NCBI GenBank assembly: GCA_000004985.1
Contig: GG738848.1
Direction: 5' to 3' (one strand)
Length of the DNA stretch: 64,000 nucleotides
DNA from: Naegleria gruberi
Taxonomy: Eukaryota
In this document: positions 5,901 to 47,315 of the stretch, piece after piece
Layout of the letters: each line of letters starts with the position of its first letter
Position numbering within the stretch: position 1 is the first letter of the stretch
The notes under the pieces: model-generated
Seen by the model: only the letters and a program-made list of their open reading frames with translations
Told to the model about the DNA's origin: nothing
The model's database searches: none
Made by a program: the position numbers and the translations under genes

Positions 5901-8242
5901 ATATCAACACTAGGAAGACAATTAGCAATAATTGTAGGCATATCTTTTGTGGAAGCCACAAGAGCATAATATCCAAATCCAAAACAAGCAACAAATGTTA
6001 AAAAAGAAACTACTACAAATATCAGTACCACTATATACGTTGCCTTGTTATCCCCTGAGGTAGCCAAGGCCATTCTGAACAGACCCTCCTTCCTTACTTC
6101 TGGATCTTCTGAAGCTTCATTAATCAAGTTCAATATTTCAGGAGTCTCTTCCGTCATTTCTTTTGTGGTAGAGTTTTCTGCAGTAAGTTTGTTAGTGCTC
6201 TCCATGACAGACTTTCTAAATGATATGAGTTTTGATGCTGTTGACATGGAAGACAAGGGGCTTTTGGCATTAGAGGGAACAGTTGATGCTGGGCTTTTCA
6301 CTGGTGATGAGATGGTTCCTATTACTTTTCCTTCCTTCCTTTCTTCTTCATCTTCAATCTCATTGGCTTCTTGATACAACTCTTGAGCTCTGATATTGTT
6401 AAATATTACCAGTTCAAGAAATCGTGCATATAATCTTAGAACTGATTTATCGCCACCAAAATCTTTCATCAAATTCTCAAAGGTTATTTCTGACTCAACA
6501 GTTAGTTGGGTAATTCTTCTGTTGATTGTAATAACAGTACCAAAATTGACCATTTCATTGGTCATTTCCTTCCAAAGCGCTTTGTGCCAAGATAGGATTG
6601 TATGGTGTTGTCTTTCCAAGTTGGCTAAAATATGCTTCACATCCACAAAACTAATACCAGAACCTTCACCTGATTTTTTGTGCAGTAAGGTTTCCATTTC
6701 TTTCAATTTTTCTTTCAAAATAAATTCTGTTATAATATTGAGTTTGTGTCTCTTGATTTTCTTCAATAAAGCGAGAGAATATTCATAACAGTTGGTGCCT
6801 TCATTCCAGAAATAAGCGGTTGTCATTGCTGCAGCAACGATATTTTCAGGATAGGAGAAGGAACGATGTTGAGCCACTCCTTTGATGAATGAGATGCAAA
6901 TCTCATTGTCACTTAGACCCAAAGCATCATTTAAAAGTTTCGTCTTTCTACTTGATAATCTAAAGAAAATGTATAATTGTCTAATTCTTTTTTGATCTTC
7001 CAATTCCTTGAAGAAAGAGTAACTTTCTCTTTCAAATAAATGCCTCAATTCTGATATTTGTTCCTCGCTGGCAGTATATTCGACTCCATTTTCCAAAAGT
7101 TTTACCAATGAATTCTCCAAGCAACCAATGAAACCCCTCCTTATGGAATAATATGATACACCAAGATAAATGGTCATTGCTGCAAAACCAATAAAAAATC
7201 CAATTATTGCCAGTCCAATTGATGTACTAATCATTCCTAGTCCAATTTCTAAATCTTGTTTTTGATTAATGAAAGAGGAAATGAGAGGACCTAAACTTGT
7301 ACCAATTTTAGAAAAGACAATACCACTCATAAAACCATTCTCTGATAGAGAATAGTGAGGTATGAGGAAGAAAATAGATGGAACCAAAGTTGTAGAGAGA
7401 ACAATATGAACTATAGCCCTCACAAATACCATATCATTTGGAATAGCATACATGACAATTACTTGCAACTGAGATGTTGCCATAAAGTGAGCAATAAAGA
7501 ATGGACTCTCTGAAATGAATACAGATTTGCTTTTGAGATGGGTATTTGTAATGATGAGATTATACATTGCAGTTACTGGTACCAGTACAACTGCCATAAC
7601 AATACAAGTAACCAAAAGTGCAATATTAGTTGGTGAGTAGCACATTTTGGTTGGAAATCTAGAAAGAGCATACTGATCTATTGTGTATCCTTCAAAGAAC
7701 TTCTTTCCTGACACTCTATCACAATCCACAAATGATGTCAGCAAGTACGGTATTGTAAGATGACCAAAAAAGCAAGCAAAAGCAACAATCTTCAACAAGG
7801 TTCTAAAGGTTTTCATATTCCTACTAGCTGTCATGGCTGCCTTTGCAGTTGTAATAAACAAAACCAAAGCAGCAAGAATAAACACCATACAAACAACTGT
7901 TATTGCAATCATTGCCTCATACGTAATCAAATCTAAGGAAAAAGTAATTGGATAATTCAAAGCTTTTGAAATCCATAATCCATATTCTCCCCATCCATAA
8001 TCACCCATTACTGATATGCTAACGGCTCCATAACATGAATATAATACAACGAGCAAGTTGAGGATGAAATTCTTCCATGATTTCTGAGGTGCTTTGTCAG
8101 TCATGACAATTATTCTATTCAGCAAGGCATCCTTAACTTTGACAATATTCTGTCTCCTCGATAAATAACCTGAAGATGAGGAGGAGCTACTAGAATTATG
8201 AGAAGAACTCTGATAATCGGAGTGATGCCTAAAGTCAATCAT
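2974..8242 (-). CDS. Polytopic membrane protein with PAS domain and class III adenylyl/guanylyl cyclase catalytic domain (about 1720 aa; 3 exons: 8242..3845, 3791..3427, 3361..2974)
   Basis: ATG at 8242 verified, TAG stop at 2974. Exon 1 encodes roughly 10 TM helices, a long cytoplasmic region and a PAS-like fold just upstream of the cyclase. Two introns with GTAAGT donors and AG acceptors (3792..3844, 53 nt; 3362..3426, 65 nt). The spliced product reads LMN|GETFIAEKLPDITCLFTDMIGFTEI...KTIGDSYFCCGG...NV|R|IGINTGQVVGGVIGFKKFAFDLWGDTINVASRMES, the canonical cyclase metal-binding Asp, transition-state N/R and dimerisation motifs. Confidence 0.8.
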
Positions 8243-8730: not shown

Positions 8731-11700
8731 ATGTCATCCTCAAATCTTGCTGAAACTGATGCAGCAGCAAGTGACACATCAAAATCATCGTCATTAACAT
8801 CTAACCTCCTTCCTCTCCTGGACCAACTTTCTCAATATGCCCTCGATCTCTCACAAAACAAAATCTTTACCACCTCACTCTGTGATTACATTCAAAGTGC
8901 CTCACAACAAGTTTTCCTCTATGAAAAACTTGTTCAAACCAATCCAGATAATCCCTTCATTGCAACAATGAATTATTCCGATGTTCAACGTGTAGCCGAT
9001 GCCCTTCATGAGGCTTGCATCTACTTGATGGAAGTTCTCGGCAAGGATCCACAATTCTCTCGAAAGGAAGACGCTCAAAACGATTACATGTTTGAGCGGG
9101 AAGATCGTGAACAAGTGGGAATGATGAAGGTGCGTACCTTAAATATCATTGAAACGACGCGAAAAGCCAATACCAACTCGCTCAACGAGGTGCAAAAGAG
9201 AAAAAATTTACAGGCGCAACAAGTCTTTCAATTCGATTTGCACGCTCGTTTGTATAACTCAAAGAATGGTGTTGTTCAACCTGAGGAATTGACCAATGAT
9301 TCGAGAACATTCCACACCATCGGAAATGAAAATAGTGGAGGAAGAGATTCATTGATGAAAAAATTGTTTCACGTCTTGAATAATCAAATTGCTCAACAGA
9401 AGGAACATCAGGCTCAACAACAAGCTTTGGCTGAGAAGGGAAAGGCTGTTATTAGTGCAGCTGATAGTTTGGCTAGAAATTCTGCTCAGAGATTAAAGGT
9501 TATTCTTGTGAATGGTGTTACTGGTGTTGGTAAAAGTAATTTCTGTAATACCATTTGTAGAGAATTATGTGATCAAAATCCTGATACCATTCAAAGAAAA
9601 TTCCATTTGAGATTGAGAGCAAATACTAAATTTTCTCTCACTGTAAGTTTTCAAAGATATTCACAAGTTTTAAATTTATTCTATTTCTAATAACTATTGT
9701 ACTTAACTGATAATGAACTGATTGGATAATTTATTGAATTGTAATAATACTATTTTGGAATTTTTCAAAAATTAGACAACAGAAGCCATGCAATATGTTG
9801 TTCAAACATGGCACGTTGGACCATTGCCAATTCATGAAAAACAACTTCGTGAATTGTATCAACAATCTTTTATTGGTGTGACAACAATTCTCTATTTGGA
9901 AGATCCAAGTAATATCCATCAAATTTTGGCTCTCTTACCAAATATTAAATATTCTCCATCCAGTCGTGCATTTGTTGTCATTAGTTCTAGATCACAATTG
10001 AAATTGGAATTTGATAGATTCTCAAAGGGTTATATTGACCTTGTAACTGACTCTGGTGTCAAACAAATTAGAGATAGAATTGTTGAGCTCGATACTGCCA
10101 ATACTGAAGGTAGTATTGCTGCTGATCAACATGATTTGGATAATTTTTCTGATCACGAATCTGACTTTGAAAGTGATGATGAAAGTAGTGGAGAAAGTGA
10201 TGAGGAAGAAAAGCCAACCAAAGCAGGTAAAAATGACAAGTATCACATTAAAAAGACTCCACAACAGAAAAAGATGGAAAAGGAACTCAAATCAATCTTT
10301 GGTAGTACCAAGAAGAAGACATTTGCCATTCACATTGGTATCAAGGATGACGATGAAAAAATTCCAGTCTTCCAAAGACACTTTGATGTTATTTATTGTA
10401 CATTGGAACCACTAAGTTTTGATGGAGGTGCTGAAATGATGCAACACCTCAACCCACAACTCCAAAGTGACGAGACAAGATCTGTCTCTGCTTTGGCTGA
10501 AAATTTACCAATATTTATCAAAGTTCTCACCAGATCTCAAATGCTCTATGGGGGTGACCTGTCTGATTACTCATTTGCTATTGGTTCATTCATGGATAAG
10601 TATGGCAACACTGATTTCCCACAATTGAGAAAACTTTGTCAAGGTTTCTTTATTGGTATCTGTGAAAAGTGGGACAAACAACTCAGAAATTTTGCACTCA
10701 AACTCTCAATCTTCCCATTCTCTTTTGATGCTGTCAGTGTTGGACTCGTATTGGAAACTCCTCTCAATGAAACATTACGCTACCTCCAATATTTGATCTT
10801 CTTTGGTTTGATTGTTCAGTGTGAACCTGGTAGATTTAGTATGCATGACTTGGTCAGAGATACCTTCCAAATTTACAAGGATGAAGAAATGAGCGATAGA
10901 GATCCACTTAAGAATGATATTGCCGAATGTGAGGAAAGATATGTCCAACACTATTTCAACTTGTTGAGATTATACAATATGCAACATGAATACTCTGGTA
11001 TTATTTACATGCCTGGTCCTGAAAGGTATGACATGGATATTGAAAATATGAAATATGTTGTTGAATTTTTGAAAGATTTGGGCAATACTGACTATGTTGA
11101 TGCTCTTAACACTGGTAGATATATTTTCAGAAATTCAATCTATGCTATTGATAGAGGTCGTCTCTACACATTCCTTGAGAGCAGTGCCGCAGTCGATAAA
11201 CTCCCTGATGATTTTGGAAAGGCCAACTTTTTCGAAGGTTTTGCCATGATTTACTTTGATTTGATGGATCACAAGAATGCCTACATTAAGGCAAAGAAGG
11301 CCCTCGATTTATTAGAGAATGCTTGTATTTTGAGTGATGTACCAAGTGACGAACTCAAACAATTACCAGTACTTCTTCTTGCTGGTGAAATTGCCTTTAG
11401 ACAAAATCAACAAGATATTGCTCTCAGATTCTTTGAAAAGATGGTTACTCTTGCCAATAAGTATGCTCACGACTGGCAAAAGATTACAGTGGAAAAGAGT
11501 AGTGATCCGTTTGCTATCGTACAAGGTTTTGAGGAAAATGAAGTAATTGTCAAGGATATTTTTATTGGAAAGTCTTATATTTGCCAAGCCAAGATTTACA
11601 TGCAAAGAGGTGATGTCAAGAATGGTAAAAAGTTCTTTGAAAGAGGTCTCACCATTATGCAACGTATTTACCATCGTTACCATCCATTTATCAGTGATGC

Positions 11701-13093
11701 TTTTGCTTCCTATGCTCAACTTCTTCGTGATTTCAAATCAAGTCAGTACTATGAAGACATTTGCAAGTACTATAAGGATGCTATTGAAATTGATACCAAG
11801 ATTTTTGGTGAAGATTCATTCTCTGTTTGTGAAAAGTTGGATGGCTATGCTGTTGCTCTCTTGATGCAAAACAATTACGAAGCTGCCGAACCAATTTTCC
11901 AAAAGACCCTCATTACTAGAAAGAGGTTCTTTGGTGAGAATGACATTACTGTCAGTTCAACCCATAACAACTTGGCTGTCTGTTTAAAGCACTTGAGAAA
12001 GGCCGATGAAGCCAAGATTCATTATGAAGCCTCTCTCAATATTTTGACTGACTTGTTTGGTCCAAATGACTCTAGAGTTGCTACTATCAAGACCAATGTT
12101 GCCAAACTAAAGTTGGAATTCTCAGAATCATATGAAGACGCTGAAAAGACTTTCCAAGAAGCTCTTGAAACATTGAAAGATGAGAATATCCATGAAAAGG
12201 GACGTCAAATGGCCAGTACATTGAACAGTTTGGGTGATGCTTCTCGTCAAAGGCAAGACTATACAAAGGCTCTCGAATACTATGAACAAGCTATGGCTAT
12301 ATTGGAAGAAGTTAAAAAGAAGGCCAATACTGAGAGTACTGAATATTCTGAAGTTATTTCTGAGAGTGTGAAAATTCTCCTCAGTATGTCCAACTTGCAC
12401 TACGACAAACAAGAGTACAAACAAGCTGAAGAATTATTGGAACGTGGTTTGGAAATTATTCAGAAACATCTTGGTGGCGAGAACCATCCTCTCTATCCAA
12501 ACTATCTCAGTTTGGCAGCCAATACCAAACTTAACAAGAAGGATTATTCAGGCGCTGAAGAATACTATCATAAGGTTATTGAAATGAAGATTAAGCAAAA
12601 GTTACCTCCAACAGGTATTATGCCAACAAATCAATCTTTGGCTGTCTGTTTGGATCGTCAAGGTAAATATGCTGAAGCTATTGAACAATACCAAAAGGTC
12701 TTGAACATTCTCAATGAAAGCTTTAAGGATGATTTGGATAAGCAAATCTCAGTCATTAGAGCTATTGCAAGTGCCAGTACAAAGAAGGAACCAAAGGATT
12801 TTGCTACTGCTGAAAAGTACTTTGCCGATGTTGAAAAGTTAATTGTTAAAAAGACTGGCTCTGACAATAATATTGAATATGGTGAAATTATGAGTGATTT
12901 GGGAGCTTGTAGAATTCAATTACAAAAGTATGAAGATGCCATTCTGAACTTTGCAACCTGTGAAAGAATCTTTTCTGAATTCTTTGGAGACAATCATGAC
13001 AAGACCATTACTGCCAGAGAAAATGTTCAAAACTTGAGAACTCTTATGCAACAACAAAACATCAAGCAAGGATGCCCATGTACATTAATGTAA
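8731..13093 (+). CDS. NB-ARC/STAND P-loop NTPase with C-terminal TPR array (NLR-like; about 1409 aa; exons 8731..9642 and 9776..13093)
   Basis: ATG at 8731 verified. Exon 1 ends in phase 0 at ...FSLT|gtaagt. A 133-nt intron leads to acceptor attag|ACAACAGAAGCC, in frame with ORF 9788. Motifs: P-loop KVILVNGVTGVGKSNF, Walker-B-like TTILYLEDP, TTR-like FVVISSRS, MHD motif GRFSMHDLVRD, then repeated kinesin-light-chain-type TPRs (e.g. NLAVCLKHLRKADEAKIHYEASLNI). The ~250-aa N-terminal domain is of unknown type. C-terminus is ...QGCPCTLM, a CaaX-like box. Confidence 0.8.
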
Positions 13094-15598: not shown

Positions 15599-16615
15599 TT
15601 ATTTAAATAACACTGTTGGAAGTTCCTTTCGCACAGGTTGGAAATCGAGTGACAAGTTTGCGAATTTAGCACACACTCTTACAATTCGTTGATGTTTCCA
15701 AAGCGCGCCTCTGTATGTTTGCTTTAAAATTGCGAACTTTTTGATTCTTCCAATAATCTGTTCAACAACAACTCTTCCTTTACCTAAGACTTTGTTGTAA
15801 ATTTCGCTTTTTGCCGAAAGTTGTTCACCTTTTGGTGCTTTGTCAGGAGAAATACAAAATTCTGCGTTTTGATAAGCTTTGTCGCCTAATACTCTTTCAT
15901 TTTCAGAGAAATGCTCTTTGTTCGTTTGTAACCATTCATCCCACATCTTCTTATCGTGCTTTCTTCCTGGGAACGCATGCGAAATGTTTGCAATTTTTCC
16001 TGTTACTAAAGTAGTCACAACTTGATATTTGAGTGCATGCATTCTCTTTTTGTAAGAATAATACATTTTTTGCTTTTTCCACAAACCTCTTTTTTGCTCA
16101 CGTGACAACCCTTTCTTTTTTCTTCCTGAAGGGTTTTGAATCCTACATTCCATTCCATCAACAACAGCACGAACACGTTGAAAAACACCACTTGCGCCTT
16201 GATTTTCTTCTTTCAACCGTTCCTCTAACTTTAACTCAGGTAATTTTTCATCAACAATTTCTAAAGTTTTGTCAATATTTTCGAAATAACTTGATCTTGA
16301 TACATTCCAGTAAACATTATGAACCAAACTTTTAGGATAACAATTTAAATATTCCATAAAAATAAGAAACCACATTGGTTTAATATCATCAACTAAGTAA
16401 TCATCGTACACACGTTGTAGAATCCATGGCTTGAAGCCAAATGATGCAATAAATGACTTCACGTTGCCAACACGAAAACGAGCTTTGTACTCTTGAAATA
16501 AAGATCGCATTTTTTCGAAAGTACTTTCGAAATTAATTTCGTTCACTTTCTCATTTTCGAAACTAAAAAAAAAATGGCAAAGAAGAAACAAGCTGTAAAG
16601 GAACCATCTTCGCAA
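15599..16615 (-). CDS. Harbinger/PIF DDE transposase (DDE_Tnp_4 family)
   Basis: Conserved blocks ...VVDGMECRIQNPSG..., ...VLGDKAYQNAEFCI... and ...KGRVVVEQIIGRIKKFAILKQ... The tool's start at 16615 is TTG. The first in-frame ATG (MRSLFQEYKARF...) lies about 105 nt downstream, near 16510, and is the likelier start. TAA stop at 15599. Confidence 0.75.
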   Translation of the reverse strand: MRRWFLYSLFLLCHFFFSFENEKVNEINFESTFEKMRSLFQEYKARFRVGNVKSFIASFGFKPWILQRVYDDYLVDDIKPMWFLIFMEYLNCYPKSLVHNVYWNVSRSSYFENIDKTLEIVDEKLPELKLEERLKEENQGASGVFQRVRAVVDGMECRIQNPSGRKKKGLSREQKRGLWKKQKMYYSYKKRMHALKYQVVTTLVTGKIANISHAFPGRKHDKKMWDEWLQTNKEHFSENERVLGDKAYQNAEFCISPDKAPKGEQLSAKSEIYNKVLGKGRVVVEQIIGRIKKFAILKQTYRGALWKHQRIVRVCAKFANLSLDFQPVRKELPTVLFK

Positions 16616-17569
16616 GAAGATGAAGAAGAAAAACCTAAGAAAGCAACCAAAAGATTTAGAGAAGAGGATTATGCTAAATTACAAAAGTATTACTCTGAAC
16701 ATTACGATACTAAAGAGGGAAATCAAGAAGATGTCTTCCGTTCGTTTGGCAAGTTGCATGGTTATTCCGTATCGCAAGTTCAACGTGCACATTACAGAAA
16801 ACAAAAAAAAAGTAATAACAAAAAGAAGAAAAGCAAAACTTCTGATAATGTAGAAAAACAAGAATTTGAGGACAGATTCACAATTTATGCACAAGAAATG
16901 GATGATGAAGAAAATAAGAAGAAGAAAAGAAAAACCGACACCAATCATGAACCGAAAGCAGATGATGAAGATAGCGAACATTCATACGAGACTGAGTCAT
17001 ATGAAACCGATTATTTATCCGATGAAATGATTGTGCGCACACCTTCGAAATTAACAAAAACAGTCAATATCAACGATGAGACAACATCTTTATTTCGTCC
17101 CTACAGATTCGAAAACGCTTCCTATTGTTTTTTTGTCTACAGATACCCAACTTGGACCTCTTTTCTGTTCGATGGTATTGACATGTCAAAGAAAGTGAAG
17201 ACATTTTCCATCATTGTTACAATTCATTCAAGCATTGACAAGAAAGTAATTTCTGATTCTTTCCCGAATTTCGCAAGTGGTTTGGTAGAATTAACTGAAA
17301 GAAAGGATGAAAAATTCACAATTTACGAACCGATTCCGAAAGGTGTTGATGTTAAATCTGTGAAAAGTGGTCTATTCGAATTGCAATTACTAATTGGTGA
17401 TAACAGAGTGTTCATGGTGTTCTTTGAAAAGAAAGTACAAAAGTTCCAACCATCCACAAGTCAAGCTGAGTTTTCGAAATTCTTACTCTCTTCCGGGATG
17501 GCACCAGTTTCTGCCAGAAGTAACACTTTCAGTGCGCCAACACAAGACAAGAAGGATTCTCAAAAGTGA
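16574..17569 (+). CDS. Harbinger second ORF, putative Myb/SANT-like DNA-binding partner protein (331 aa)
   Basis: Divergent to the transposase inside the same TIR-bounded element. Basic/acidic, with N-terminal segment KATKRFREEDYAKLQKYYSEHY...FRSFGKLHGYSVSQVQRAHYRKQKK loosely resembling a Myb-like helix-turn-helix. Harbinger elements canonically encode such a second protein. Confidence 0.5.
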   Translation: MAKKKQAVKEPSSQEDEEEKPKKATKRFREEDYAKLQKYYSEHYDTKEGNQEDVFRSFGKLHGYSVSQVQRAHYRKQKKSNNKKKKSKTSDNVEKQEFEDRFTIYAQEMDDEENKKKKRKTDTNHEPKADDEDSEHSYETESYETDYLSDEMIVRTPSKLTKTVNINDETTSLFRPYRFENASYCFFVYRYPTWTSFLFDGIDMSKKVKTFSIIVTIHSSIDKKVISDSFPNFASGLVELTERKDEKFTIYEPIPKGVDVKSVKSGLFELQLLIGDNRVFMVFFEKKVQKFQPSTSQAEFSKFLLSSGMAPVSARSNTFSAPTQDKKDSQK

Positions 17570-18407: not shown

Positions 18408-20210
18408 TTAACATAACTGAAGACACTCCTTTTCAATACAATTCAAAATATCATCTTTCCATTGTATAGCTTCTTCCTCATTTTTGAATCGAATGCAAAG
18501 TTTAGTTTGTTTACATTCGAAATCACCTCTAATGAAAACTAATTCACTACTTTTAGGAGATTCTGATCTGATAGAATGCATAGGAAGTCCATGTCTATTA
18601 ATTTCATCTAGATGGAATTTTAACACTTTCATTTTGAACCATCTGTATTTCCTTGGATATTTAATTAGAAACATGTCATGGAAAAGGAATAATTGACATG
18701 GTGTGATATTTCCGCAATCTCTGATACGTTCTGCCATGAAATAGGAATGGATTACTTTACGTTTGTGAGTTACTAGACCATCCAGTGCTAAATTCTTTGA
18801 AATATCTAGTAATTGTCCTAAATCATTCGAAACTTCCAATTTGGATTTGGAATACTTGTTCAAATCTCGAAGAATTATCACTGATTGACCTAATTTCGCA
18901 TAATTCTCCAAACCAATATAGAATTTGTCAGAAGATTTCAATACCTTTTCACAGAGAGCTGAAATCTTTTCAACAAATTGATTTGGAATTGAGAGAAAGG
19001 ATTCGAATTTCCAAAATATTGTCTTTCTTTCGACTAGTTCCTTTTCTACCTTTCTAATGGCTTGTTTCAACTCTGAAGATTTTCTCTTTTCACTCTTGAA
19101 CACTTGAATGATAGAGAAATATTGATCAAAATAGGAAATGTAATTGGATTGAGTCAATTCGAATAATTGGTGAACTAATTGAATGAAAAATTGTTCCTCT
19201 CCCACCAGAATAATTCCATTCCTTGATAATAACGTCGAAAGCTCACTAATCACCTTTGCATTCTGCTCTGAAATTACCTTTAAATGATCAAATGCCACAT
19301 GTCTTTTCAAACTCACTTCATCACTCACATTTTCAATAACCTTAATGTAATTTTCTTGGAAAATCTGAAGTAATAACTGATACTCTTTCAAGGAACATAG
19401 AAACTGTTTGTAAAGATACTGTCTCTTGTCAAGTAGAACTAGAGAATCCTTGGATGATTTTTGTAAAGTCAACTCGACAGGTTTTGGAGGTGGAATTGGA
19501 ATTGCATTTCGATCCAGAATTTGAGATCTGGAAGAATCTAGTTTGATTTCGGATAATTCTTCAGAAGAAGATCTGATAGTGTCCAATGAAGTGGAAATTT
19601 CACTCACTTCGTCCAATGTTGAGCTTCGAATAGATGAATTTTTGGAACTCAAAGATTGAGAGGAAAGTGGACTAATTATTGATGATGAGGAAGATGCATG
19701 TTTGAGAGATGATGAACTTCCGGTAGAATCTTCATTAATTGGAAAGGAAGAAAGCTTTCTCACTAGATTCGAATCAAGTTTTGGAATTGAATTATTCGAA
19801 TTTTCTTGAATTCCTGCAACTCGAACAATGGAAGATTGATTATTCGAAAGCAAACCTTGCATACTTGATAATAGACTTTCGGAATGTTTCTCAAACAATA
19901 CCTTGTTAAGCAAATTTTCCTTCATTTCCCAAACTTGCTTTTCTAATAACAATATTCGATTCTTTTCCTTCTCAATTTCTAATAACTTTTCAAAGTTATT
20001 ATTTGATTTATCCATTCCATAGTTATGATTCTGGTAATACTTGAACGAATCAAACTGACTTGAAGACGAATTAGATTTGACTAGTGTAATTTTAGGAGAA
20101 TCTATTCGATAGTCACTTGTCTTTCCTTCTCCCTTTCCGAAATCCTGTTGTTTATTCTCCATTCTTCTAAGATCTACTCCCGAGAGCACTCTTTTGTTTT
20201 GAAAATTCAT
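18408..20210 (-). CDS. RhoGEF-like protein (DH domain followed by PH-like domain), Ser-rich/coiled-coil N-terminus
   Basis: Tool start at 20225 is TTG, preceded in frame by TAG. First ATG (MNFQNKRVLSG...) is at about 20210. Central helical bundle consistent with a Dbl-homology domain, followed by ...CQLFLFHDMFLIKYPRK...LVFIRGDFECKQTKLCIRFKNEEEAIQWKDDI, a typical PH-domain C-terminal strand/helix pattern. TAA stop at 18408. Confidence 0.55.
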   Translation of the reverse strand: MNFQNKRVLSGVDLRRMENKQQDFGKGEGKTSDYRIDSPKITLVKSNSSSSQFDSFKYYQNHNYGMDKSNNNFEKLLEIEKEKNRILLLEKQVWEMKENLLNKVLFEKHSESLLSSMQGLLSNNQSSIVRVAGIQENSNNSIPKLDSNLVRKLSSFPINEDSTGSSSSLKHASSSSSIISPLSSQSLSSKNSSIRSSTLDEVSEISTSLDTIRSSSEELSEIKLDSSRSQILDRNAIPIPPPKPVELTLQKSSKDSLVLLDKRQYLYKQFLCSLKEYQLLLQIFQENYIKVIENVSDEVSLKRHVAFDHLKVISEQNAKVISELSTLLSRNGIILVGEEQFFIQLVHQLFELTQSNYISYFDQYFSIIQVFKSEKRKSSELKQAIRKVEKELVERKTIFWKFESFLSIPNQFVEKISALCEKVLKSSDKFYIGLENYAKLGQSVIILRDLNKYSKSKLEVSNDLGQLLDISKNLALDGLVTHKRKVIHSYFMAERIRDCGNITPCQLFLFHDMFLIKYPRKYRWFKMKVLKFHLDEINRHGLPMHSIRSESPKSSELVFIRGDFECKQTKLCIRFKNEEEAIQWKDDILNCIEKECLQLC

Positions 20211-20849
20211 TCTTCCTTTCCACAATGAAAACTAAACCTATTCGAAAAGATATCCTAATTTGAATATTGTTTCAAATAAAATCATTTACAATAATTAATC
20301 TAAAACCTTACTAGTAATATCAGCGTTTCGTTCAGTCGTTCATAAGGAAAAATTTATGTAAATTTTATCAACTTTCGAACCAAATGTCTGAAATTTCTTT
20401 TTATGAAAATCACGACGTTTGGTTGTGTAGACTGTTTAGGATAAAAATTAAGGTGATTCGAATGGACAGTGGTTCCAATTCATAGTTTAAATATCCCACT
20501 AAACGTTCGATATTCATGATTAGAACTTTCAAATAGTTTTGTTTCCATTAATAGTTAGGACCAAGTTGCCGTCATGAAACAACATTAACCCGTTATCAGT
20601 TTACTGTAGTTTATAATCCAAACGAAAACAGATTAATAATAAACGAAAACAGTTTAACATTGAAATATTGTTGCTTAGATTCTCCATCATCATTTGCCAC
20701 TTGTCTTTCCTTTTTTAAAGAAACAGAGAGCTGAAAGGAGTGAAACAGCCTTAAAGATTATATTTAATGTATGAGCAAGAATAACACAATAGAACAACAC
20801 ATATCATTTTGATTGTTTTAAGGTAATAGAAATTTATCTTTAATTGAGT

Positions 20850-23800
20850 TTATTCATCTTGAGGCTTTTTCACTTTTGCTTCAGTTTTTGATTTAACATT
20901 AACAACATGCTCACTTTCATCATCCACATTTGGCATATCTGGACGATCCTTCTTCTTCCTATTTACATAAACAGGACGTCCATAGATAATTTCTGATAAT
21001 ACTCTAATGACTCTGTCCAAGGATTTCATGAATGGATGACGGAATAAACTGCCAAGGATTTTAAGGAACTTTTGATATTTGTAGGTTTGGATGAAATAGG
21101 AATCGAATACGGAATTCAAAGTTTCCTTTCTCCAACAATCATATAGAGCTTGATAGTTTTGAGCCCATTGAATTCCAAAGTCATCGAGTAATGTCTTGAT
21201 TGAGGAATCCATATATGGATGATAGAATGTTGATTCCTTAAAACATTTCTCAACTATCAAACTTGAACGGATCTTTTTCAAATCCTTGACAATTTGCTCA
21301 ACTTCACGAGTTGCTGCATGTTTGGTGGAAAATCCATTTTCAGCTTTCAAAAGTTTGATGTTTTTGTGTTTGTACAAGTCAATGAGGAAAGAATTCAATT
21401 TGGAAAATTCCAAATCTTGAAGTGGAATAGTTGTCTTGTTAAGACAAATGTTGTGGTTGAGTGTTTGGAGGAAGTGATCAACACTCTTGTAATGACCATC
21501 CATGTTACCACTGAGAGCAGCGAAGGATGAAATGGAAAGGTTGTTTCTAATACAGTGGGATGATAAGTGCTTGATGAGTGGAATATTGTGTAAATCAGAT
21601 TCGAATTCACTTTCGTCCAAGACGAATTTCTTAGTGACTGGTTCATTCACTTGCTGTTCAGATTCAACTGGTTCAGTTTCTTCAACATCAAAAGATTCCC
21701 AATCGTCATCTCCACCTCCAACATTCTCTTCCTTGGTTTCATTTGAACTGTTAGCATTTGATTTCAATATTCTCAACTTTTTGAAATTTCCATGATTACT
21801 CAAAGGCAAATGAACATCCTCCAATTCATCTTGCTTATCTACAGCATAAACAGATGCAAAATTACTAAAGATAGAAAGTGCCATGTCGTTGTGAGATTTT
21901 ACATGCTCAGCCATTTCTCTGAAAATTGATCCCTCTTCCATATTTTCCTCTCCCAATTGAATGGTATGTTTCTTATTAAAATATGATCCCACAACACTTC
22001 TATACATTAAATAGGTGACTATCTTTAACAATAACAAATCTTGTTCAGTATCACTGTAAACTTGCTTAAACTGTTCAAAGAATTTGAATTTCACTAAATG
22101 TGGAATTGTGAATGCCTTCTCATTGAGATAGAATAAATGAGTTACCAATCCACTCAAACTCAAAGGTTCACAATTTCCATTCAAAAACTCAGTTTGGAAA
22201 AGGTACTCAGAATTGAAAAGGAATAAATGTTTCATCTGCTTGGCAGCTCTATCGACCAAATTCTTATCCAATGAGAAGAGAGGTTTATCTAACAATCTCT
22301 TGATTCCTTCCTCGATTGAGGAATTGTTTCCTTGTTGAGATAAACTGGAGAATAATCTGAGAGTGAAACTTGTTGGGAAACCTTGAGATCCATTGACAAG
22401 GACTGGAGGGGAGAGGAGGTATCTTCTTTGCAATGGAGTATTGAATCCACACAGAATGACTCTTCCCTTATTATCAAATCCTCTTCTACCAGCTCTACCA
22501 CAAGCTTGTTTGAATAAACTATTTGAATAGAAAGGTGAGAAACCACAAATTACTACAGTCTTACAAGGCATGTTAACACCCAAAGCTAAAGTTGAAGTGG
22601 AGAAAATAAGTGGAATATCTCCAATTCTAAACAATCTTTCAACTTCAATTTGATAATTTTCGTCCATAGCTGCATAGTGACATGCCAAACCAACTTTTAA
22701 TGCTCTAAAGTGTAGTTCTTCAACTTCAAAGTCACAGTTTCCCTCTTCAATGGATGAAACAAGTTGTGAGATTGTTTTTGGGATTTTCCCATCTTTCCAC
22801 AAGTTAGTTTGGTTAGTTTCTAAATAATTGACAAGATATTCTAAATAATCATTGATCAGAGTTCTGTTGAATGCAAAGGAAATAGAAGGGAGCATGTTTT
22901 CATTCTTCATTTGCATGACAAGGTTGATAATTTCCTCTTCGTGAAGCTTCTCTGATCTTTCGGTTGTTGAAATAAGCGATAAATGGTAAAAGTGTTGAAT
23001 AATCTTGCAGATATTATCATGATTATTATCGTCTTGTCCCTTTTCAATCAAATATTCATGAACCTTTCTTCTATAATTAATGGAATCTGCCCATTTGAAT
23101 GGTTCTAACAAATCTGATTTCAAACCAATCTGTACAATCTCTGTAAACCATGAAGGTATTTCCTTCTCTAAATATTGAGTCAATTCGAGGCATTCCTTCA
23201 TGGACATACCATTCAACAACTCCAATTCTTGTTTCAAATTATTTACATTTACCAAAGCCAAAGGATGGACATGGATACACTTGCCTTCATTATCGTTATT
23301 AAAATTATAATATTCCAAAGGATTGAAACGTTTGTAATCTTCAAGATGGACAGTTTCAACAATTTGTCTCTTTCCATGTTTCATCCATTCTGCCAATTCA
23401 TTTCTGTTATCCAAAGTTGCAGATAAACCAAGAATTGGGCAATCCAGGAATTGAATAATATGTTCATAGTATTGAGACTGATCACCATCAAAAGCTGAGT
23501 GGATTTCGTCGATAATTAAATACTTGATCCTTGATTTCCAATTATTTTCCTGACTGCTCATCAAATAAATTTCCAACATGGCAGGTGTGATAATTAATAC
23601 TTGAGAAGTGAATTCATTAATTCTCTTGGAAGCTGTTGCCATGCCTACAAGATTATTTCTTTCAAATCGACTGGAAATTTCACAATAAATTTGGTTGACC
23701 AATGCTTTGGTTGGAACAATGAAGCAAATAACATCTGTTGAAGATTCTCTCAATACTTTCTCGATTAAATAGAAGCAAATGAATGTTTTACCTTGTGAGG

Positions 23801-25976
23801 TAGGTACATTACATAAAACTGAGACATTTTCCTTGTTGACATGGTTGATGAGTTCTTCTTGCCACTCATCAGGAATAAAGTCCATATCTTCTCTCATTCT
23901 TTGACGAATCTTGAAAGCTCTGTATTCCTCTGGTGTCATTCTACTTAAATCTGTATCATCTTCAAGTGCATTCAATACTCGTTGCAAGGAAAATTGTTGA
24001 GGATGTGGAATGAAAAAGGAATTCAATTCACAAGTTTCCTTGTACATTTGAATAATGTCAATAGAATCCTTTTCACTTCTTTGTTTCAATTTCAAAGACT
24101 TTCTTTGGATAATTTCATTTCCAGATGAGAAGAGCTTGAATCTGAAGCATTCATTGACAAGCTTTTCAAATAAAATACCAACCTTGACCTTTGGCAAGTT
24201 TAAGGAATATTCTTCAAGGAACGAGTAGATGAATCTAACCCAAATACCAACTTGAATTAAATCGTCCTTGTTGGCTTGAATTAATTCCAATTGAGCAAAT
24301 AAAGTCAAGGAAAGCAACTCAAAAACTTGCTTGATTCCATTATCAACATCTGAAGCTTCAGTCTTAACAATCTTTCTTTCCAATCTCTTCAAATAAACAA
24401 GTTCTTCGAATATGCTACTTGACAAAGCCAACATGGCTTTGGAAGAATTGATCTGTGACATTTCTTCTTTCCATCCATCAATTCTCTTTGGTAGAGTAGC
24501 TTTAAAGTAGTTAGCTTTCTTTTGAACTGTTTTGATTTCTTCCTTGATATCCTTAGATGTGTATTGCTCAGCAACAACAACTCTCTTCTTTGGTCTATCA
24601 AAAGATGCAATTAATTTGGCAAGTGAAGTTGATGTTTCATCAGATTTTCTAGGTTCTGGAACTGATGAAATCTTTTCAGTGTTGTGGTAATGATATTCAT
24701 CTTTGAAAACTTTCTTGTTGGAGTTTCTTTCAATAATAGATTCTGGAATGTCAAATAACTCGCTCATGAAACGATTGCTGATTGGTAAAACTTGATGATC
24801 GTTCTCGAATTCATATTGGAATGAGGAAGAGGTTGGAATTTGTTGCATGGTTTCTAATAAATTGGCCTGGCTTTCACCTAATCCTAATCTAGAAACAATT
24901 TCCTTATATTGGCTTTGAAGATGCTCTGGAAGAGTAAATTCATTTTGCTTTGTTTGAATCATCCAAAGCAAGATTGAGTGTGCCAATCTACCATCCAACA
25001 AATCATCACTTCCTTCAATATAATCTTCATGATGATAAGCAATTTCGAACAACTTTCCATAAAATCTTTGAATAAACTCATTCAATTCAGCAACTGCAAA
25101 GTCAACTTTTTGATATCTATAATTGAGTGGCAAGTATCCTTGCAATAATTTAGTAATCACTATAACCTTGGCAAGTAAATGATCCAAATTACTGGACAAG
25201 CTATCAGTAATTGCTTTTTCGAACAGTTGGATGACTGACATTTTACCAATTTCCATAGGAGTAGAATTAATTACAAGACCGTCAATATCAAAAGTGATTC
25301 TTCTTCTTTCTTTAGTTCTTAAGTAAAACATTCTTCCATTAATTGCTGAACCTTCTCCTGTAATACCAGAAACCAATGGAATTGAACAATAATTCAACAG
25401 TAAGGCCAACAAGTCTCTATTGTAAGATGATATTACAATAGAATTAACATTCACACTTTCGCTTAACTTTCTAAACTCTTCAAAATTTTCATAAATATTT
25501 TCATGCATTACAAAACAGGAATGTCTCTTTTTAAGTTCTGGATTTTCATCAATGGACTTTTTCAAGTGGTAGAATAACAAGTGACGAAGCAATCTCTTGG
25601 AATTCAATTCTTCCTTTCCTCTGGCAATTGGATCATTACCTTTCAGATAAAGTAATTGAAAACCAACTCCACTCTTTCTCCATTCTCTCAATTTAGCTTC
25701 ACAATAAAAGAACATATGAAGCCATTGACCACCATGATCATTCCAATCAATACCACTTATTTCGCTTTCATAAATTGCTTGATCAATTAAACTATCAATA
25801 TCGACCAATACAAAGCTCGAACCACACTCATCCAAGAATCGAACATTTCTCTCGCCAATGACGCCAAAAACATCCTTTCTATCTTGATTATTGCCATTTC
25901 CTTCATAATCATGATCCTTAATTTTCTGAGCATCTTCCGAAGGTTGTTGTTGATTATTATTATGATTGGGTAACAT
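20850..25976 (-). CDS. DDX60-like Ski2-type DExH-box RNA helicase (1708 aa, intronless)
   Basis: ATG at 25976 verified. Helicase core begins about 715 aa in: motif I VPTSQGKTF, Ia FIVPTKALVNQ, Ib TPAML, II LIIDEIHS, III LGLSATL, V STSTLALGVNMP, VI QACGRAGRRG. The long N- and C-terminal extensions and overall length match the DDX60 family (human DDX60 about 1712 aa). Confidence 0.8.
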   Translation of the reverse strand: MLPNHNNNQQQPSEDAQKIKDHDYEGNGNNQDRKDVFGVIGERNVRFLDECGSSFVLVDIDSLIDQAIYESEISGIDWNDHGGQWLHMFFYCEAKLREWRKSGVGFQLLYLKGNDPIARGKEELNSKRLLRHLLFYHLKKSIDENPELKKRHSCFVMHENIYENFEEFRKLSESVNVNSIVISSYNRDLLALLLNYCSIPLVSGITGEGSAINGRMFYLRTKERRRITFDIDGLVINSTPMEIGKMSVIQLFEKAITDSLSSNLDHLLAKVIVITKLLQGYLPLNYRYQKVDFAVAELNEFIQRFYGKLFEIAYHHEDYIEGSDDLLDGRLAHSILLWMIQTKQNEFTLPEHLQSQYKEIVSRLGLGESQANLLETMQQIPTSSSFQYEFENDHQVLPISNRFMSELFDIPESIIERNSNKKVFKDEYHYHNTEKISSVPEPRKSDETSTSLAKLIASFDRPKKRVVVAEQYTSKDIKEEIKTVQKKANYFKATLPKRIDGWKEEMSQINSSKAMLALSSSIFEELVYLKRLERKIVKTEASDVDNGIKQVFELLSLTLFAQLELIQANKDDLIQVGIWVRFIYSFLEEYSLNLPKVKVGILFEKLVNECFRFKLFSSGNEIIQRKSLKLKQRSEKDSIDIIQMYKETCELNSFFIPHPQQFSLQRVLNALEDDTDLSRMTPEEYRAFKIRQRMREDMDFIPDEWQEELINHVNKENVSVLCNVPTSQGKTFICFYLIEKVLRESSTDVICFIVPTKALVNQIYCEISSRFERNNLVGMATASKRINEFTSQVLIITPAMLEIYLMSSQENNWKSRIKYLIIDEIHSAFDGDQSQYYEHIIQFLDCPILGLSATLDNRNELAEWMKHGKRQIVETVHLEDYKRFNPLEYYNFNNDNEGKCIHVHPLALVNVNNLKQELELLNGMSMKECLELTQYLEKEIPSWFTEIVQIGLKSDLLEPFKWADSINYRRKVHEYLIEKGQDDNNHDNICKIIQHFYHLSLISTTERSEKLHEEEIINLVMQMKNENMLPSISFAFNRTLINDYLEYLVNYLETNQTNLWKDGKIPKTISQLVSSIEEGNCDFEVEELHFRALKVGLACHYAAMDENYQIEVERLFRIGDIPLIFSTSTLALGVNMPCKTVVICGFSPFYSNSLFKQACGRAGRRGFDNKGRVILCGFNTPLQRRYLLSPPVLVNGSQGFPTSFTLRLFSSLSQQGNNSSIEEGIKRLLDKPLFSLDKNLVDRAAKQMKHLFLFNSEYLFQTEFLNGNCEPLSLSGLVTHLFYLNEKAFTIPHLVKFKFFEQFKQVYSDTEQDLLLLKIVTYLMYRSVVGSYFNKKHTIQLGEENMEEGSIFREMAEHVKSHNDMALSIFSNFASVYAVDKQDELEDVHLPLSNHGNFKKLRILKSNANSSNETKEENVGGGDDDWESFDVEETEPVESEQQVNEPVTKKFVLDESEFESDLHNIPLIKHLSSHCIRNNLSISSFAALSGNMDGHYKSVDHFLQTLNHNICLNKTTIPLQDLEFSKLNSFLIDLYKHKNIKLLKAENGFSTKHAATREVEQIVKDLKKIRSSLIVEKCFKESTFYHPYMDSSIKTLLDDFGIQWAQNYQALYDCWRKETLNSVFDSYFIQTYKYQKFLKILGSLFRHPFMKSLDRVIRVLSEIIYGRPVYVNRKKKDRPDMPNVDDESEHVVNVKSKTEAKVKKPQDE

Positions 25977-26315: not shown

Positions 26316-27776
26316 TTATTCAGAATTATTCTCACTATCATCTCTGATATCATACTTAGTTGGCTGTTCAATGTTTGGATAAAGTGCAGCAATTTTCTTG
26401 TTTAATTTTGGATTATCCTCGAGCCAATCAAAACGTTTCAAGTTGGGAGCAACAATTTTCAAAGATTGAGCTAATTTGTCCATTTGTTCTTCATTTTCAA
26501 ATTCATACGAGTTACCAATTCCAACAAATTCCAATCTTTCATTTGAATTTCCGCCAAAATACAAATCTTCATGTTGCGCTGTAACACCAACATAGATATT
26601 GTTTCGTCCAACATTGAAATATCTCAAATTGGGGAAATTTCCAAGTTTTTGAAGGCAAGATCCTGAAATTTCACACGCAGCTGGAATATCTATATATTCC
26701 AAATTTGGTAGTTTCTCTAAAAAATTGATTATTCCACTATCTGAAATAGATGCTTCAAAAGATGAACCAGAATCTGAACATTTCAAAGAAAATTTCTTCA
26801 ATTTTGGACAAGTTTCTGCCAAAACCTCTAAATGTCTATCAGTGAAATCATCTTCATAAATAAAATGAAATTCTTCCAAGTTGGGACAAAGTAAAAGAAA
26901 GCTCAATAAGTAATCTGCATAGTCATAATCTAAAACAAGACTAATACTTTTCAAATTGTTTAGAATTGGAACTTTGGCAATCTTTTCATCAAAACTTTCG
27001 CCCTTTTCAATTTCAAGCGTTTTTTGATGCATGTCATTAACATGATAATTTTGTGGAATTTCCAAACTTTGTAAATCTCTAAAATTCGTCAATATTTTCA
27101 ACATTGATTTTGGATTTAAACACCAATGAAGCACAATGCTTTTCACATTGAAACCATTTGCTGGACCACTGAGAGAAATTCTCTCTTTCTTCACATTGGA
27201 AAGAGATTTAAAATCTTTAAATGAAACTCTATTCGAAAATTCGATTGGAATACTTTCTATTTCAATGGGTGTGAGTTTTCCATCAGAATTTAACATTCTT
27301 GTATTGGTAATTTTGAATAGCGTTTCCCAATCTTCAGTTGAATCGATCAAATCAGATAATTCACCCAAAGAAACATTATTAGAAATACAATATTCCTTCA
27401 CTTGTTCAGAATTTTCCGAATTTAACACCAATTTGTTTTTTTGTCTATTAATTTAACATCCAGTCAAGCAAATGTAAACAGTGTTAATCCATTGTATATC
27501 CATTGATTGAACTTACTTGAGAGCATTCACCAAAGAGAAAGGTTTCGTTTTAGTTTCAATAAAATGTTTACAAACAACTTCCTTCACATAACTAATCATC
27601 CAATCAAAATTTTGCTTGGAAGTCAAAGCCCACATTAAAATACTTTCCGTTGGTAAATATTCAATAATAACAGACCATTCATCCATTGAAAGATTAGTGT
27701 TGAAAGTTGATGGTAAAGTTTTGACTTTTTTCGCTGAGTGAAAGCTTTCGTCCAGTTTATCTTGTGATCTTTTCAT
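26316..27776 (-). CDS. F-box/LRR-repeat protein (exons 27776..27517 and 27444..26316)
   Basis: ATG at 27776 verified. Exon 1 encodes an F-box (MDEWSVIIEYLPTESILMWALTSK). Donor CTCAA|gtaagt (phase 2), 72-nt intron, acceptor taatag|ACAAAAAAACAAATTGGTG. Exon 2 encodes leucine-rich repeats (LPNLEYIDIPAACEISGSCLQKLGNFPNLRYFNV...). The tool's 'M' at 27431 is a TTG inside this exon. Confidence 0.7.
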
Positions 27777-28016: not shown

Positions 28017-29231
28017 ATGGGTCAATCACAGAAACCAATAGCAGCTCCACAATCTGCAGAAACCACCCATCACCACAACTCCAAGGATCCTCCTAAATAT
28101 TCATTGTGCACTCGGAAAGAACATGAAAATTTCATCAAATTAATTGCAATTAAATCTTCCACTACTACCACCATAGAAAACAATTCCTTCAAGTTAAATG
28201 ATGAAGAAAATTCGCAATTTTACCTCCGAACAGTGCTGATCAGAGAGGAAAATAAATCGTGGTTGGAGAGGGAGCTACCCATTGAAATAATATTCGAAAT
28301 ATTGAGATATTTGCTACCTGATGATTTGATAATCTTGTCGGGAGTGAGTTGGAATTTCAGAGAGGTGTGGACAGAGCATCCATTCTTGTGGTTCTCTCCA
28401 TTGGAAAGTGGTGAGAATTATGGGAAATCACTCATGTCCAGAAAGTTAGTGGAAGATTTCATCAATAATTCAAATAATCTTGTTGCAAATTGGAAACAAA
28501 TATATCTTCAGATTGGAAATGTAATGATGTATCCGAAAAGTTTCTCAAATTTTGCAGATCAATGTGTCTATGGAAGAATCTATGGAGAATATAACACCAT
28601 TCAAAAAATTGGATTTATTGGAATGAAAGGATGTGGAAAATCAACTTTTTGTAAATTACTGGCCACTAACAAGTTGGATTTGCAAATGAAATCGACAATT
28701 GGTTGTGATTTTTACATTCAATATTTGAATCTGGACTTGGAGGAGAATAATCAACTTATCAAGTATTGCTTCAAGCTCGAAATTTGGGATGTAAGCGAAA
28801 TGTTCAGATCAGTTTACAGAGGTTTGCATGTAATATATTTTTGTTTTGATCTTTCGAATGAGGAGAGCTTATATCATATGATAAACATGTTCAAGGATTG
28901 CTGTACCAATGATTTGTACATTAATGACCTATCCAATCTTGAGAATGAATTGGATACAGATATTGTATTTCTAGGACTGAAGAAGGATAGCAAAACAATA
29001 TCGAATCATACCATTAACAATTGTATATATCCTTTCATTGACAGGAATGTGCCTTATCATCAAAGACGAGTTTCATATTTTGAGGTTAGTGCCAAAGAAC
29101 AGGATAGGACAACTTTCTATCCAGTATCTCACATTGGATTTTTACCATCAAAGAGAGAACATTGTTTCCCACTCACTCCACTCACAAAGGATAATGAAGA
29201 AAGATTTAGGAATTATGGAGCTTTGGATTAG
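28017..29231 (+). CDS. F-box protein fused to a degenerate Rab-like small-GTPase domain, N-myristoylation motif (404 aa)
   Basis: ATG verified. Begins MGQSQK (Gly2). F-box ELPIEIIFEILRYLLPDDLIILSGVSW. GTPase motifs: G1 GMKGCGKST, switch-I TIGCDF, G3 degenerate EIWDVSE (no Gly/Gln), G4-like LGLKKD, G5 EVSAKE. Confidence 0.65.
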   Translation: MGQSQKPIAAPQSAETTHHHNSKDPPKYSLCTRKEHENFIKLIAIKSSTTTTIENNSFKLNDEENSQFYLRTVLIREENKSWLERELPIEIIFEILRYLLPDDLIILSGVSWNFREVWTEHPFLWFSPLESGENYGKSLMSRKLVEDFINNSNNLVANWKQIYLQIGNVMMYPKSFSNFADQCVYGRIYGEYNTIQKIGFIGMKGCGKSTFCKLLATNKLDLQMKSTIGCDFYIQYLNLDLEENNQLIKYCFKLEIWDVSEMFRSVYRGLHVIYFCFDLSNEESLYHMINMFKDCCTNDLYINDLSNLENELDTDIVFLGLKKDSKTISNHTINNCIYPFIDRNVPYHQRRVSYFEVSAKEQDRTTFYPVSHIGFLPSKREHCFPLTPLTKDNEERFRNYGALD

Positions 29232-29975: not shown

Positions 29976-30520
29976 TTACATAATAGCACATGTTTTTCTT
30001 TGCTTTTTCTTTTCTTGTTTTGGTTCTGGTTTAGTTTTTCTAATTTCTCTAATTAATGTTCCAAATGCTTCATCCACATTCAATCTCTGTCTTGCTGAAG
30101 ATTCCAATAGTGGAATACCAAGCTCTTTGGCATACATTTTGGCCTTCTCCACTTTTACTGACCTTTCGGATTCCAAATCACATTTGTTTCCAACTAATAC
30201 CATTGGACACTTTTCACAATCTTTCACTCTGAGAATTTGTTCGTAGAATTCGTGAATTTCCTCAAACGACATTTTATCAATGATAGAATAAACCATGAGG
30301 AAACCATCTGCAGATCTCATATATTGATCTCTCAATGCTTGTATNNNNNNNNNNNNNNNNNNNNNNNNNNNNNNNNNNNNNNNNNNNNNNNNNNNNNNNN
30401 NNNNNNNNNNNNNNNNNNNNNNNNNNNNNNNNNNNNNNNNNNNNNNNNNNNNNNNNNNNNNNNNNNNNNNNNNNNNNNNNNNNNNNNNNNNNNNNNNNNN
30501 NNNNNNNNNNNNNNNNNACA
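29976..30520 (-). CDS. Ras-family small GTPase (Ras/Rap-like) with CaaX box CAIM; N-terminal about 58 codons lost in assembly gap
   Basis: Read after the gap: ...IQALRDQYMRSADGFLMVYSIIDK...VLVGNKCDL...ESSARQ...KTCAIM*. An ATG (aaaaaaaATG) sits immediately 3' of the N-run on the minus strand at about 30518-30520, consistent with G1-G3 lying inside the gap. Confidence 0.75.
30345..30517. other. Assembly gap (173 N)
   Basis: Run of N characters in the sequence. Confidence 0.98.
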
Positions 30521-30987
30521 TTTTTTTTGTATTGTTGTTTCGAATAAATTTTGCCTAGTTCCGCACTTAAATAGGTACAAGGAACTTGGAAGTGAGTTGC
30601 TACCATGTTCAGATAGTTCTTAAACAATAAGAGAAATTTGTTCAACAGTTCTTTTGTTATTATTCAGAGTTCCCGAACCAAGACCCTAATATATTTTCCA
30701 ATGACAACTAGCACATTCATATTATTGTCAGTGGTGGAATCTAACAAACGAATGAGAATGTGAACAACTCTGAAATGATTCGTTCAACACTACAATCTAT
30801 TCGCACCCAAAGCAAGGATTAGGAAACGATTCTTTTTGACTTGCTTTTCTCGTCGCACATGTTTTTTGTTTCACACTAATTTTTTGTTTTAGCTTATTTC
30901 TTGCTTTAGTATCTTTCTGGGGTGTGTAGTTTGTAGTGCAATTGAAAATCAATAAATTAACAATTAATTACAACTCAATTTATCCAA

Positions 30988-46885: not shown

Positions 46886-47315
46886 TATGGTTGGGTGCAG
46901 TGGTGTTGTTGGATTTTTTTCTAGTTTAAATAAGGGTTGTTTGGAGTTGGAGTGTACTTGTGTACTTGTGATGTGCACAGCTGTGGTTTGCGCCCTTAGT
47001 AAAAGAGTTCTCTACCAAGAACCACAGTTAATTCTTGCTCTCTCTTTTTATTTCTATTCTTGGATAGATAAAGTTGGGATGATGTTGCGCTTGTGTAGAT
47101 TAATGAACACCATTTTCTTTCAATACCATCGTTCAAGAAAGACATTTCTAACTCAATTCTGAACTTTTAGGTCAGGTTATTCAGTTGTGGTGATGATTTG
47201 AATATCGGTCAATAATTCCCTCAGATATATGTTATACAGAGTTGTTGCCATCCTATTTATAATAGGAATTAAACAAGGAGAAATAAAAGGAGTGGTAATC
47301 TTATCAAATATTAGT

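Follow-up and report, generated by a model that had tools for sequence, protein, structure and literature searches.

We analysed a 64,000-nucleotide stretch of Naegleria gruberi DNA (assembly GCA_000004985.1, contig GG738848.1; hereafter the window) and found that the open reading frame at 20850..25976 on its minus strand encodes a protein that almost certainly belongs to the DDX60 family. Judged from sequence comparison, this window protein is very probably a catalytically competent DDX60-subfamily, Ski2-like DExH RNA helicase that has been vertically inherited in Heterolobosea. Its architecture is of the DDX60 type, and the ATP-binding, hydrolysis and RNA-coupling motifs are all intact. The frame begins with an ATG at 25976, ends in a stop codon at 20850-20852 and has no internal stop, giving 1708 amino acids (aa) from 5127 nucleotides. 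The original prediction, made from the letters of the window alone, had described this frame, its helicase motifs and its long extensions correctly, as the translation, the Pfam matches and the alignments with relatives showed. The N-terminal extension, put at ~700 aa, measured ~695 aa. The C-terminal extension had been underestimated: instead of ~400 aa, ~520 aa lie after RecA2, of which ~200 form the winged-helix and helical bundle of the Ski2-like ring and the remainder is family-specific. Human DDX60 is 1712 aa long, a likeness to which we give little weight because the family members in our homologue scan span ~1640 to 2180 aa.

Family membership was assessed with several searches, and the best named matches were kDDX60 and mammalian or insect DDX60 rather than Ski2, Mtr4 or Brr2, in line with the assignment first proposed. 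Among sequences in the PDB, kDDX60 (Trypanosoma cruzi, PDB 7ASE chain f; T. brucei Tb927.3.2600) was the best solved-structure relative (171 bits, E 2e-49), followed by MTR4 (107 bits, E 8e-30), SKI2 (97 bits) and Brr2 (~69 bits). Residues 1-1200, scanned exhaustively with HMMER against 1.84 billion representative proteins, gave 8521 matches; the best 150 were mostly 1,100-2,400 aa long, with the helicase core well internal, and the top matches among these 150 were Naegleria, Willaertia and Acrasis proteins. Named matches included Naegleria lovaniensis, N. gruberi, two Willaertia magna paralogues, Acrasis kona and the amoebozoan Soliformovum, together with the fungus Rhizophagus, a Caenorhabditis C28H8.3-type protein and an insect "probable ATP-dependent RNA helicase DDX60". 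The relatives that shared the architecture of the window protein came from Heterolobosea, Amoebozoa, fungi, microsporidia, nematodes, rotifers, insects and mammals.

A search confined to the helicase core gave the same order. In a word-index search with the core alone, in which all 120 matches listed were shorter than 1000 aa, DDX60 of Talpa (E 2e-54) and of Saguinus (E 9e-46; query coverage 98%) ranked ahead of HelY/DSHCT proteins (E 1e-31 or weaker). These mammalian DDX60 fragments were 28-29% identical to the window protein across 89-98% of the core and outscored HelY/DSHCT by ~20 orders of magnitude. Word-index searches with the full-length query and with a 26-sequence alignment, each scoring 8000 word-sharing candidates, gave two matches each.

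The superfamily 2 DExH core is complete and carries the motifs typical of DDX60 (F-PD-WQ, APTSxGKT, PTKALVNQ, DE[IV]H, SAT, TLALG[IV]NMP and GRAGRRG). Pfam placed DEAD at residues 705-858 (E 3e-23) and Helicase_C at residues 1082-1166 (E 1e-9), and also matched ResIII. When the window protein was aligned with 25 and with 39 relatives, the helicase motif residues all fell in invariant or near-invariant columns. They include F700, P702, D703, W705 and Q706, the Walker A motif PTSQGKT (725-731), PTKALVNQ (755-762), DEIH (823-826), SAT (852-854) and QACGRAGRRG (1157-1166), in which G1160, R1161, G1163, R1164 and R1165 are invariant in the family alignments. The domains that mark other Ski2-like helicases were absent: the window protein had no match at E ≤ 10 to the DSHCT, arch/KOW or Ski2 N-terminal models (PF08148, PF13234 and PF17911), and Pfam found DSHCT, arch and Sec63 domains in none of the 26 aligned relatives. 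Nor did it resemble the tandem-cassette helicases Brr2, ASCC3 and Slh1, having a single DEAD/Helicase_C pair and no match to Sec63 (PF02889).

We placed the protein with a neighbour-joining tree built from 501 trimmed columns of the core and bootstrapped 200 times. DDX60 proteins formed a clade (80% bootstrap) apart from HelY/DSHCT, Brr2-like and archaeal-type helicases, within which the window protein grouped with Naegleria (90.5%) and then with Willaertia-a (95.5%). Identity across the core fell from 47% with Naegleria through 41.5% with Willaertia-a and 36% with Willaertia-b to 28-32% with animal DDX60. With its nearest relatives in Naegleria and Willaertia, and nested among them, the gene has therefore been inherited vertically within Heterolobosea. 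At least two groups of DDX60 paralogues, a and b, exist in Heterolobosea, and the window protein belongs to a. Group b, which holds W. magna KAL9657783, Acrasis kona and several metagenomic proteins, is nearer to kDDX60 and animal DDX60. Group a is somewhat the more diverged of the two, averaging ~30% core identity with DDX60 of animals, fungi and amoebozoans, against ~34% for group b.

The uncharacterised group-a relatives (N. lovaniensis XP_044547272, N. gruberi XP_002672714 and W. magna KAL9648214) have the same architecture, are likewise intronless and share 41-47% core identity with the window protein. Homology to them runs from end to end, in W. magna as one stretch over residues 53-1191, although they are longer (1777-2073 aa against 1708 aa). 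Neither the window protein nor a ubiquilin encoded in the window had an exact counterpart in the public protein collections searched. A decaying pseudogene copy, or a recent horizontal or viral acquisition, might account for the diverged N-terminal domain and for the proximity of a Harbinger-type transposase ~4 kb downstream (15599-16615). We consider either highly improbable and rejected both, since the 5127-nucleotide frame is free of stops and keeps every catalytic motif, the protein nests in Heterolobosea beside Naegleria and Willaertia, and the G+C content over the gene (0.33-0.34) is the same as in the remainder of the window.

Several observations weigh against the DDX60 assignment, or against carrying it over into function. 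The outgroups of the tree were bacterial HelY/DSHCT proteins, one Brr2-like and one archaeal-like helicase, and included no eukaryotic Ski2, Mtr4 or Suv3. At E ≤ 10 the curated Pfam model PF23002 (PIN-like_DDX60) still failed to match the window protein, and it recognised none of four heterolobosean proteins (the window protein, the N. gruberi protein and the two W. magna paralogues, a and b). Compared with kDDX60, the window protein scored lower (171 bits) than Willaertia-b (231 bits) and insect DDX60 (282 bits), and may therefore not share the ribosomal role of kDDX60. Because it lies in the diverged paralogue group, a ribosome-associated role for it, drawn by analogy, is much less certain than its family membership. 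The same Pfam model was found in 15 of the 26 aligned relatives; its failure on the window protein and its Naegleria and Willaertia relatives points to strong divergence of their N-terminal domain.

As PF23002 was silent, we built profiles of the N- and C-terminal extensions from homologues alone, excluding the window protein, and compared them with 400 shuffled controls. Fragments for the N-terminal alignment were anchored on the helicase core, and the distant N-terminal set was mostly PF23002-positive. The homologue profiles matched the window protein at residues 48-604 in the N-terminus (157 bits) and in the C-terminus (192 bits). Profiles from distant homologues only (matches ranked 21 or lower) still matched residues 51-491 at 105 bits (E 1e-31) and, in the C-terminus, residues 1194-1395 and 1446-1573 at 153 bits (E 2e-46), the best of the 400 controls reaching ~10 bits. 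Precomputed matches to the winged-helix model PF26076 (WHD_DDX60) exist for a relative (P0001), for the mammalian DDX60 fragments and for both orthologues, that of N. lovaniensis and that of W. magna, and the window protein aligns across the winged-helix region. BLASTP of the window protein to P0001 reached residue ~1549.

Family motifs recur through both extensions. The N-terminal domain reads VDIDSLI...HGGQWLH where the family consensus is IDGDSLL...GGQxLH, so that DIDS stands in place of DGDS. In the helical part that follows are LPLxxR (282-287), DxxDGRL (325-331) and HYHN (431-434; family consensus HWH), with R287 and D328 invariant or nearly so in the family alignments. The C-terminal helical domain contains SSFAALSGNMD and LNSFLIDLYKH, corresponding to SxFxALSGxxD and LNxYxxDFYxHG in the family.

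Structures were predicted with AlphaFold2 from a 40-sequence alignment, as one model of residues 1-1200 (predicted local distance difference test score, pLDDT, 77; predicted template-modelling score, pTM, 0.72) and one of residues 640-1708 (pLDDT 77, pTM 0.75), both of usable quality. In the first, strands and helices alternate in the N-terminal domain (residues ~40-220), and residues 1-37 are predicted to be disordered. In Foldseek searches of the PDB this model shared 1474 columns with kDDX60 and ~520 columns, confined to the core, with Mtr4, Ski2 and Brr2; over its whole length it aligned to kDDX60 only. The second model shared 828 columns with kDDX60 and ~690 with Mtr4 and Ski2, which indicates a full Ski2-like ring followed by a family-specific helical C-terminus. 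The helical insertion between RecA1 and RecA2 is found throughout the family at variable length and is longer in kDDX60. Thus, when we asked, as the original prediction had suggested, whether the extensions align to DDX60-specific regions, both did so, by the homologue profiles and, for the N-terminus, by the Foldseek alignment to kDDX60 only.

These results also bear on whether the protein could be a misassigned Ski2, Mtr4, Brr2 or other Ski2-like orthologue that has acquired unrelated extensions. Mtr4 and Ski2 were significant in the sequence search, and the ring of RecA core, winged helix and helical bundle is structurally as near to Mtr4 and Ski2 as to kDDX60. However, the protein has no DSHCT, arch/KOW, Ski2_N or Sec63 domain, DDX60 proteins outscored the alternatives by ~20 orders of magnitude, both extensions have their homologues in the DDX60 family, the N-terminal 700 residues align to kDDX60 alone, and the tree sets the protein apart from HelY/DSHCT and Brr2-like helicases. 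A Ski2, Mtr4 or Brr2 identity is therefore barely credible, being effectively refuted by the missing domains, the scores, the extensions and the tree.

The window protein can be compared with three kinds of known helicase. kDDX60 is the sole structure that aligned with its N-terminal extension plus core, and both organisms belong to Discoba; kDDX60 differs in its length of 2174 aa, in a far longer insertion between RecA1 and RecA2 and in a kinetoplastid-specific A-site insert (PMC7773551). The interferon-stimulated human DDX60 and DDX60L are of the same subfamily and similar in overall domain order and length, whereas core identity to them is only ~29-32% and the PIN-like domain of the window protein is too diverged for the Pfam model. 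We know of no interferon or RIG-I pathway in protists, so regulation and partners must differ from those of human DDX60. Ski2, Mtr4 and bacterial HelY have the four-domain helicase ring (RecA1, RecA2, winged helix, helical bundle) in common with the window protein, and presumably 3'-5' translocation too. They form a separate clade and lack the DDX60-type extensions of ~700 aa at the N-terminus and ~300 aa at the C-terminus, while the window protein is without the arch/KOW insertion and DSHCT of Ski2 and Mtr4.

It had been suggested that a DDX60-family helicase outside its usual vertebrate interferon context would be unusual. That expectation did not hold: relatives occurred in many eukaryotic groups, and homologues have already been documented in kinetoplastids, nematodes, fungi and amoebozoa. 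DDX60 homologues have been stated for every eukaryotic kingdom (PMC9724679) and found throughout Discoba (PMC10639054), and C28H8.3 is the listed DDX60 counterpart in C. elegans (PMC12511879). As the family is already known across eukaryotes, the window protein is an ordinary new member of it.

The characterised relatives, kDDX60 and human DDX60, point to a cytoplasmic setting linked to translation. The trypanosomatid DDX60 orthologue sits in the 43S pre-initiation complex (PMC7773551), where kDDX60 contacts the 40S head and body on the mRNA entry side, and it is required for trypanosome fitness (PMC7773551, PMC10639054); human DDX60 lowers translation from type II internal ribosome entry sites (PMC9724679). 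Hallmarks of the vertebrate members are induction by interferon and a part in RIG-I-like receptor signalling or in translation from such entry sites. By analogy, the window protein is most likely a 3'-5' RNA helicase that is powered by ATP and works on cytoplasmic ribonucleoproteins (RNPs) or ribosomes. Single-stranded RNA would be bound in the cleft between RecA1 and RecA2, and ATP hydrolysis between these two domains would drive 3'-5' travel through the ring that the winged helix and helical bundle close. Translocation would remodel RNA or RNP substrates, with the N- and C-terminal extensions perhaps serving as docking surfaces. Cytoplasmic mRNA and ribosome-associated RNPs would be the likeliest setting, and the protein may be a constitutive housekeeping or surveillance factor that works outside any interferon-type circuit.

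A role in defence was the other function that we weighed. The protein could be a fast-evolving, lineage-specific DDX60 paralogue that acts as an antiviral or anti-foreign-RNA factor, maybe with nearby RNF213 and STAND-NTPase/tetratricopeptide repeat (TPR) genes. It lies in the more diverged paralogue group (~30% against ~34% identity; 171 against 231 bits to kDDX60), and the core is only 62% identical even between two Naegleria species. The window further contains a clear RNF213 homologue at 50424-63965 (E 6e-166 to human RNF213) and a P-loop/TPR NPHP3-like gene at 8731-13093. RNF213 is known best, as is DDX60, for being induced by interferon in vertebrates. However, the co-location was spotted post hoc, neither N. 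lovaniensis nor W. magna has shared or such immune-type genes within ±10 kb of its orthologue, and the difference in rate between the paralogue groups is modest, which leaves a defence function unlikely. A bolder form, in which a heterolobosean-specific, fast-diverging DDX60 duplicate was recruited to defence and the proximity to RNF213 and STAND-NTPase genes reflects an ancient, pre-interferon link between families of 'vertebrate interferon-stimulated genes', seems to us slightly more doubtful again.

Table 1. Features of the DDX60-family helicase gene in the window and loci of its orthologues
Feature	Position	Strand	Residues	Basis
DDX60-family helicase coding sequence, complete, intronless	20850..25976	-	1708 aa + stop	Open reading frame list, translation
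N-terminal alpha/beta domain, counterpart of DDX60 PIN-like domain	25317..25859	-	~40-220	Family profile from residue 51; AlphaFold2 pLDDT ~75-90
Helical part of N-terminal extension	23907..25235	-	~248-690	Distant-homologue profile; Foldseek
RecA1	23277..23888	-	~697-900	Pfam DEAD E 3e-23; FIPDEWQ, PTSQGKT, PTKALVNQ, DEIH, SAT
Helical insertion between RecA1 and RecA2	22947..23264	-	~905-1010	AlphaFold2 helices 911-1001; BLASTP to relative P0001
RecA2	22407..22940	-	~1013-1190	Pfam Helicase_C E 1e-9; motif IV SISFAFNR, motif V FSTSTLALGVNMP, motif VI QACGRAGRRG
Winged-helix and helical-bundle (ratchet-like) region	21792..22397	-	~1194-1395	C-terminal profile domain 1, 106 bits; Foldseek
Acidic low-complexity linker, predicted disordered	21603..21788	-	~1397-1458	pLDDT <50
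C-terminal helical domain, DDX60-family	20982..21602	-	~1459-1665	Profile domain 2, 52.6 bits, E 6.5e-16; AlphaFold2 helices
Basic C-terminal tail, predicted disordered	20853..20981	-	~1666-1708	pLDDT <50
DDX60-like orthologue locus, N. lovaniensis, single uninterrupted open reading frame	L001 10001-16222			
DDX60-like orthologue locus, W. magna, single uninterrupted open reading frame	L002 10001-15334			

The gene had been described as lying in tandem between a RhoGEF and an F-box gene, of which the first flank stood weakly and the second did not. The downstream gene, 18408-20225 (-), matched RhoGEF (PF00621) below threshold (E 0.001, 19.7 bits against a cutoff of 27.6), and did so only in a search restricted to the last 356 aa of its product; the full frame had no Pfam match. 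The adjacent upstream gene, 26316-27431 (-), had only a weak leucine-rich repeat match (E 4e-4), and Pfam detected no F-box in it or in a possible upstream exon at 27513-27776. The sole clear F-box (residues 86-125, E 3e-7) is in the gene at 28017-29231 (+), on the strand opposite to the helicase gene. That gene encodes an unusual fusion of the F-box with a C-terminal Ras/Roc-type small GTPase domain (residues 198-363, E 3e-11). No gene of the window recurred within ±10 kb of the orthologue in either N. lovaniensis or W. magna; since the neighbourhood is not conserved, the flanking position is without functional meaning, and we dismissed the idea that the helicase is functionally linked to the genes beside it.

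Introns are sparse among the genes of the window. The RNF213 (mysterin) homologue, a giant AAA/E3 ligase, is a single frame of 4513 aa on the minus strand, ~24 kb from the helicase gene and on the same strand. Its phmmer match to human RNF213 covers residues 1259-2657, and Pfam places an RZ-type zinc finger at residues 3752-3798 (E 3e-15), besides matching dynein-type AAA_7 weakly. The frame at 8731-9690 (+) encodes a P-loop NTPase with weak KAP, NACHT and nSTAND matches, and that at 9788-13093 (+) encodes 1101 aa with many TPR_12/NPHP3-type repeats (E 3e-56); the two are probably one intron-split STAND-NTPase-TPR gene of NLR-like architecture. The transposase frame downstream of the helicase gene is on the minus strand and is of the PIF/Harbinger type (DDE_Tnp_4, E 4e-29). 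Divergent to it, and slightly overlapping, is a lysine/glutamate-rich frame of 331 aa at 16574-17569 (+) with no Pfam match, which may encode the DNA-binding partner in this Harbinger-type element.

Elsewhere in the window, a run of 173 N (30345-30517, an assembly gap) falls within a Ras-like GTPase frame at 29976-30521 (-), so that gene model is incomplete. The frame at 45425-46978 (-) contains eight DUF4116 repeats (E 2.5e-47), 47601-48836 (-) encodes a SPRY-domain protein, and 3734-8242 (-) encodes a protein of 1502 aa with TmcB-type TPR and PAS domains. Together with the F-box/Ras fusion and the sparse introns, these families are in keeping with the genome of a Naegleria-like amoeboflagellate.

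The window protein adds one more sequence to a pan-eukaryotic but poorly understood helicase family and leaves current understanding of that family unchanged. The presence of two heterolobosean paralogue groups, one of them with a PIN-like domain beyond the reach of the Pfam model, could guide comparative work on the roles that DDX60 had before it came under the control of interferon in vertebrates.

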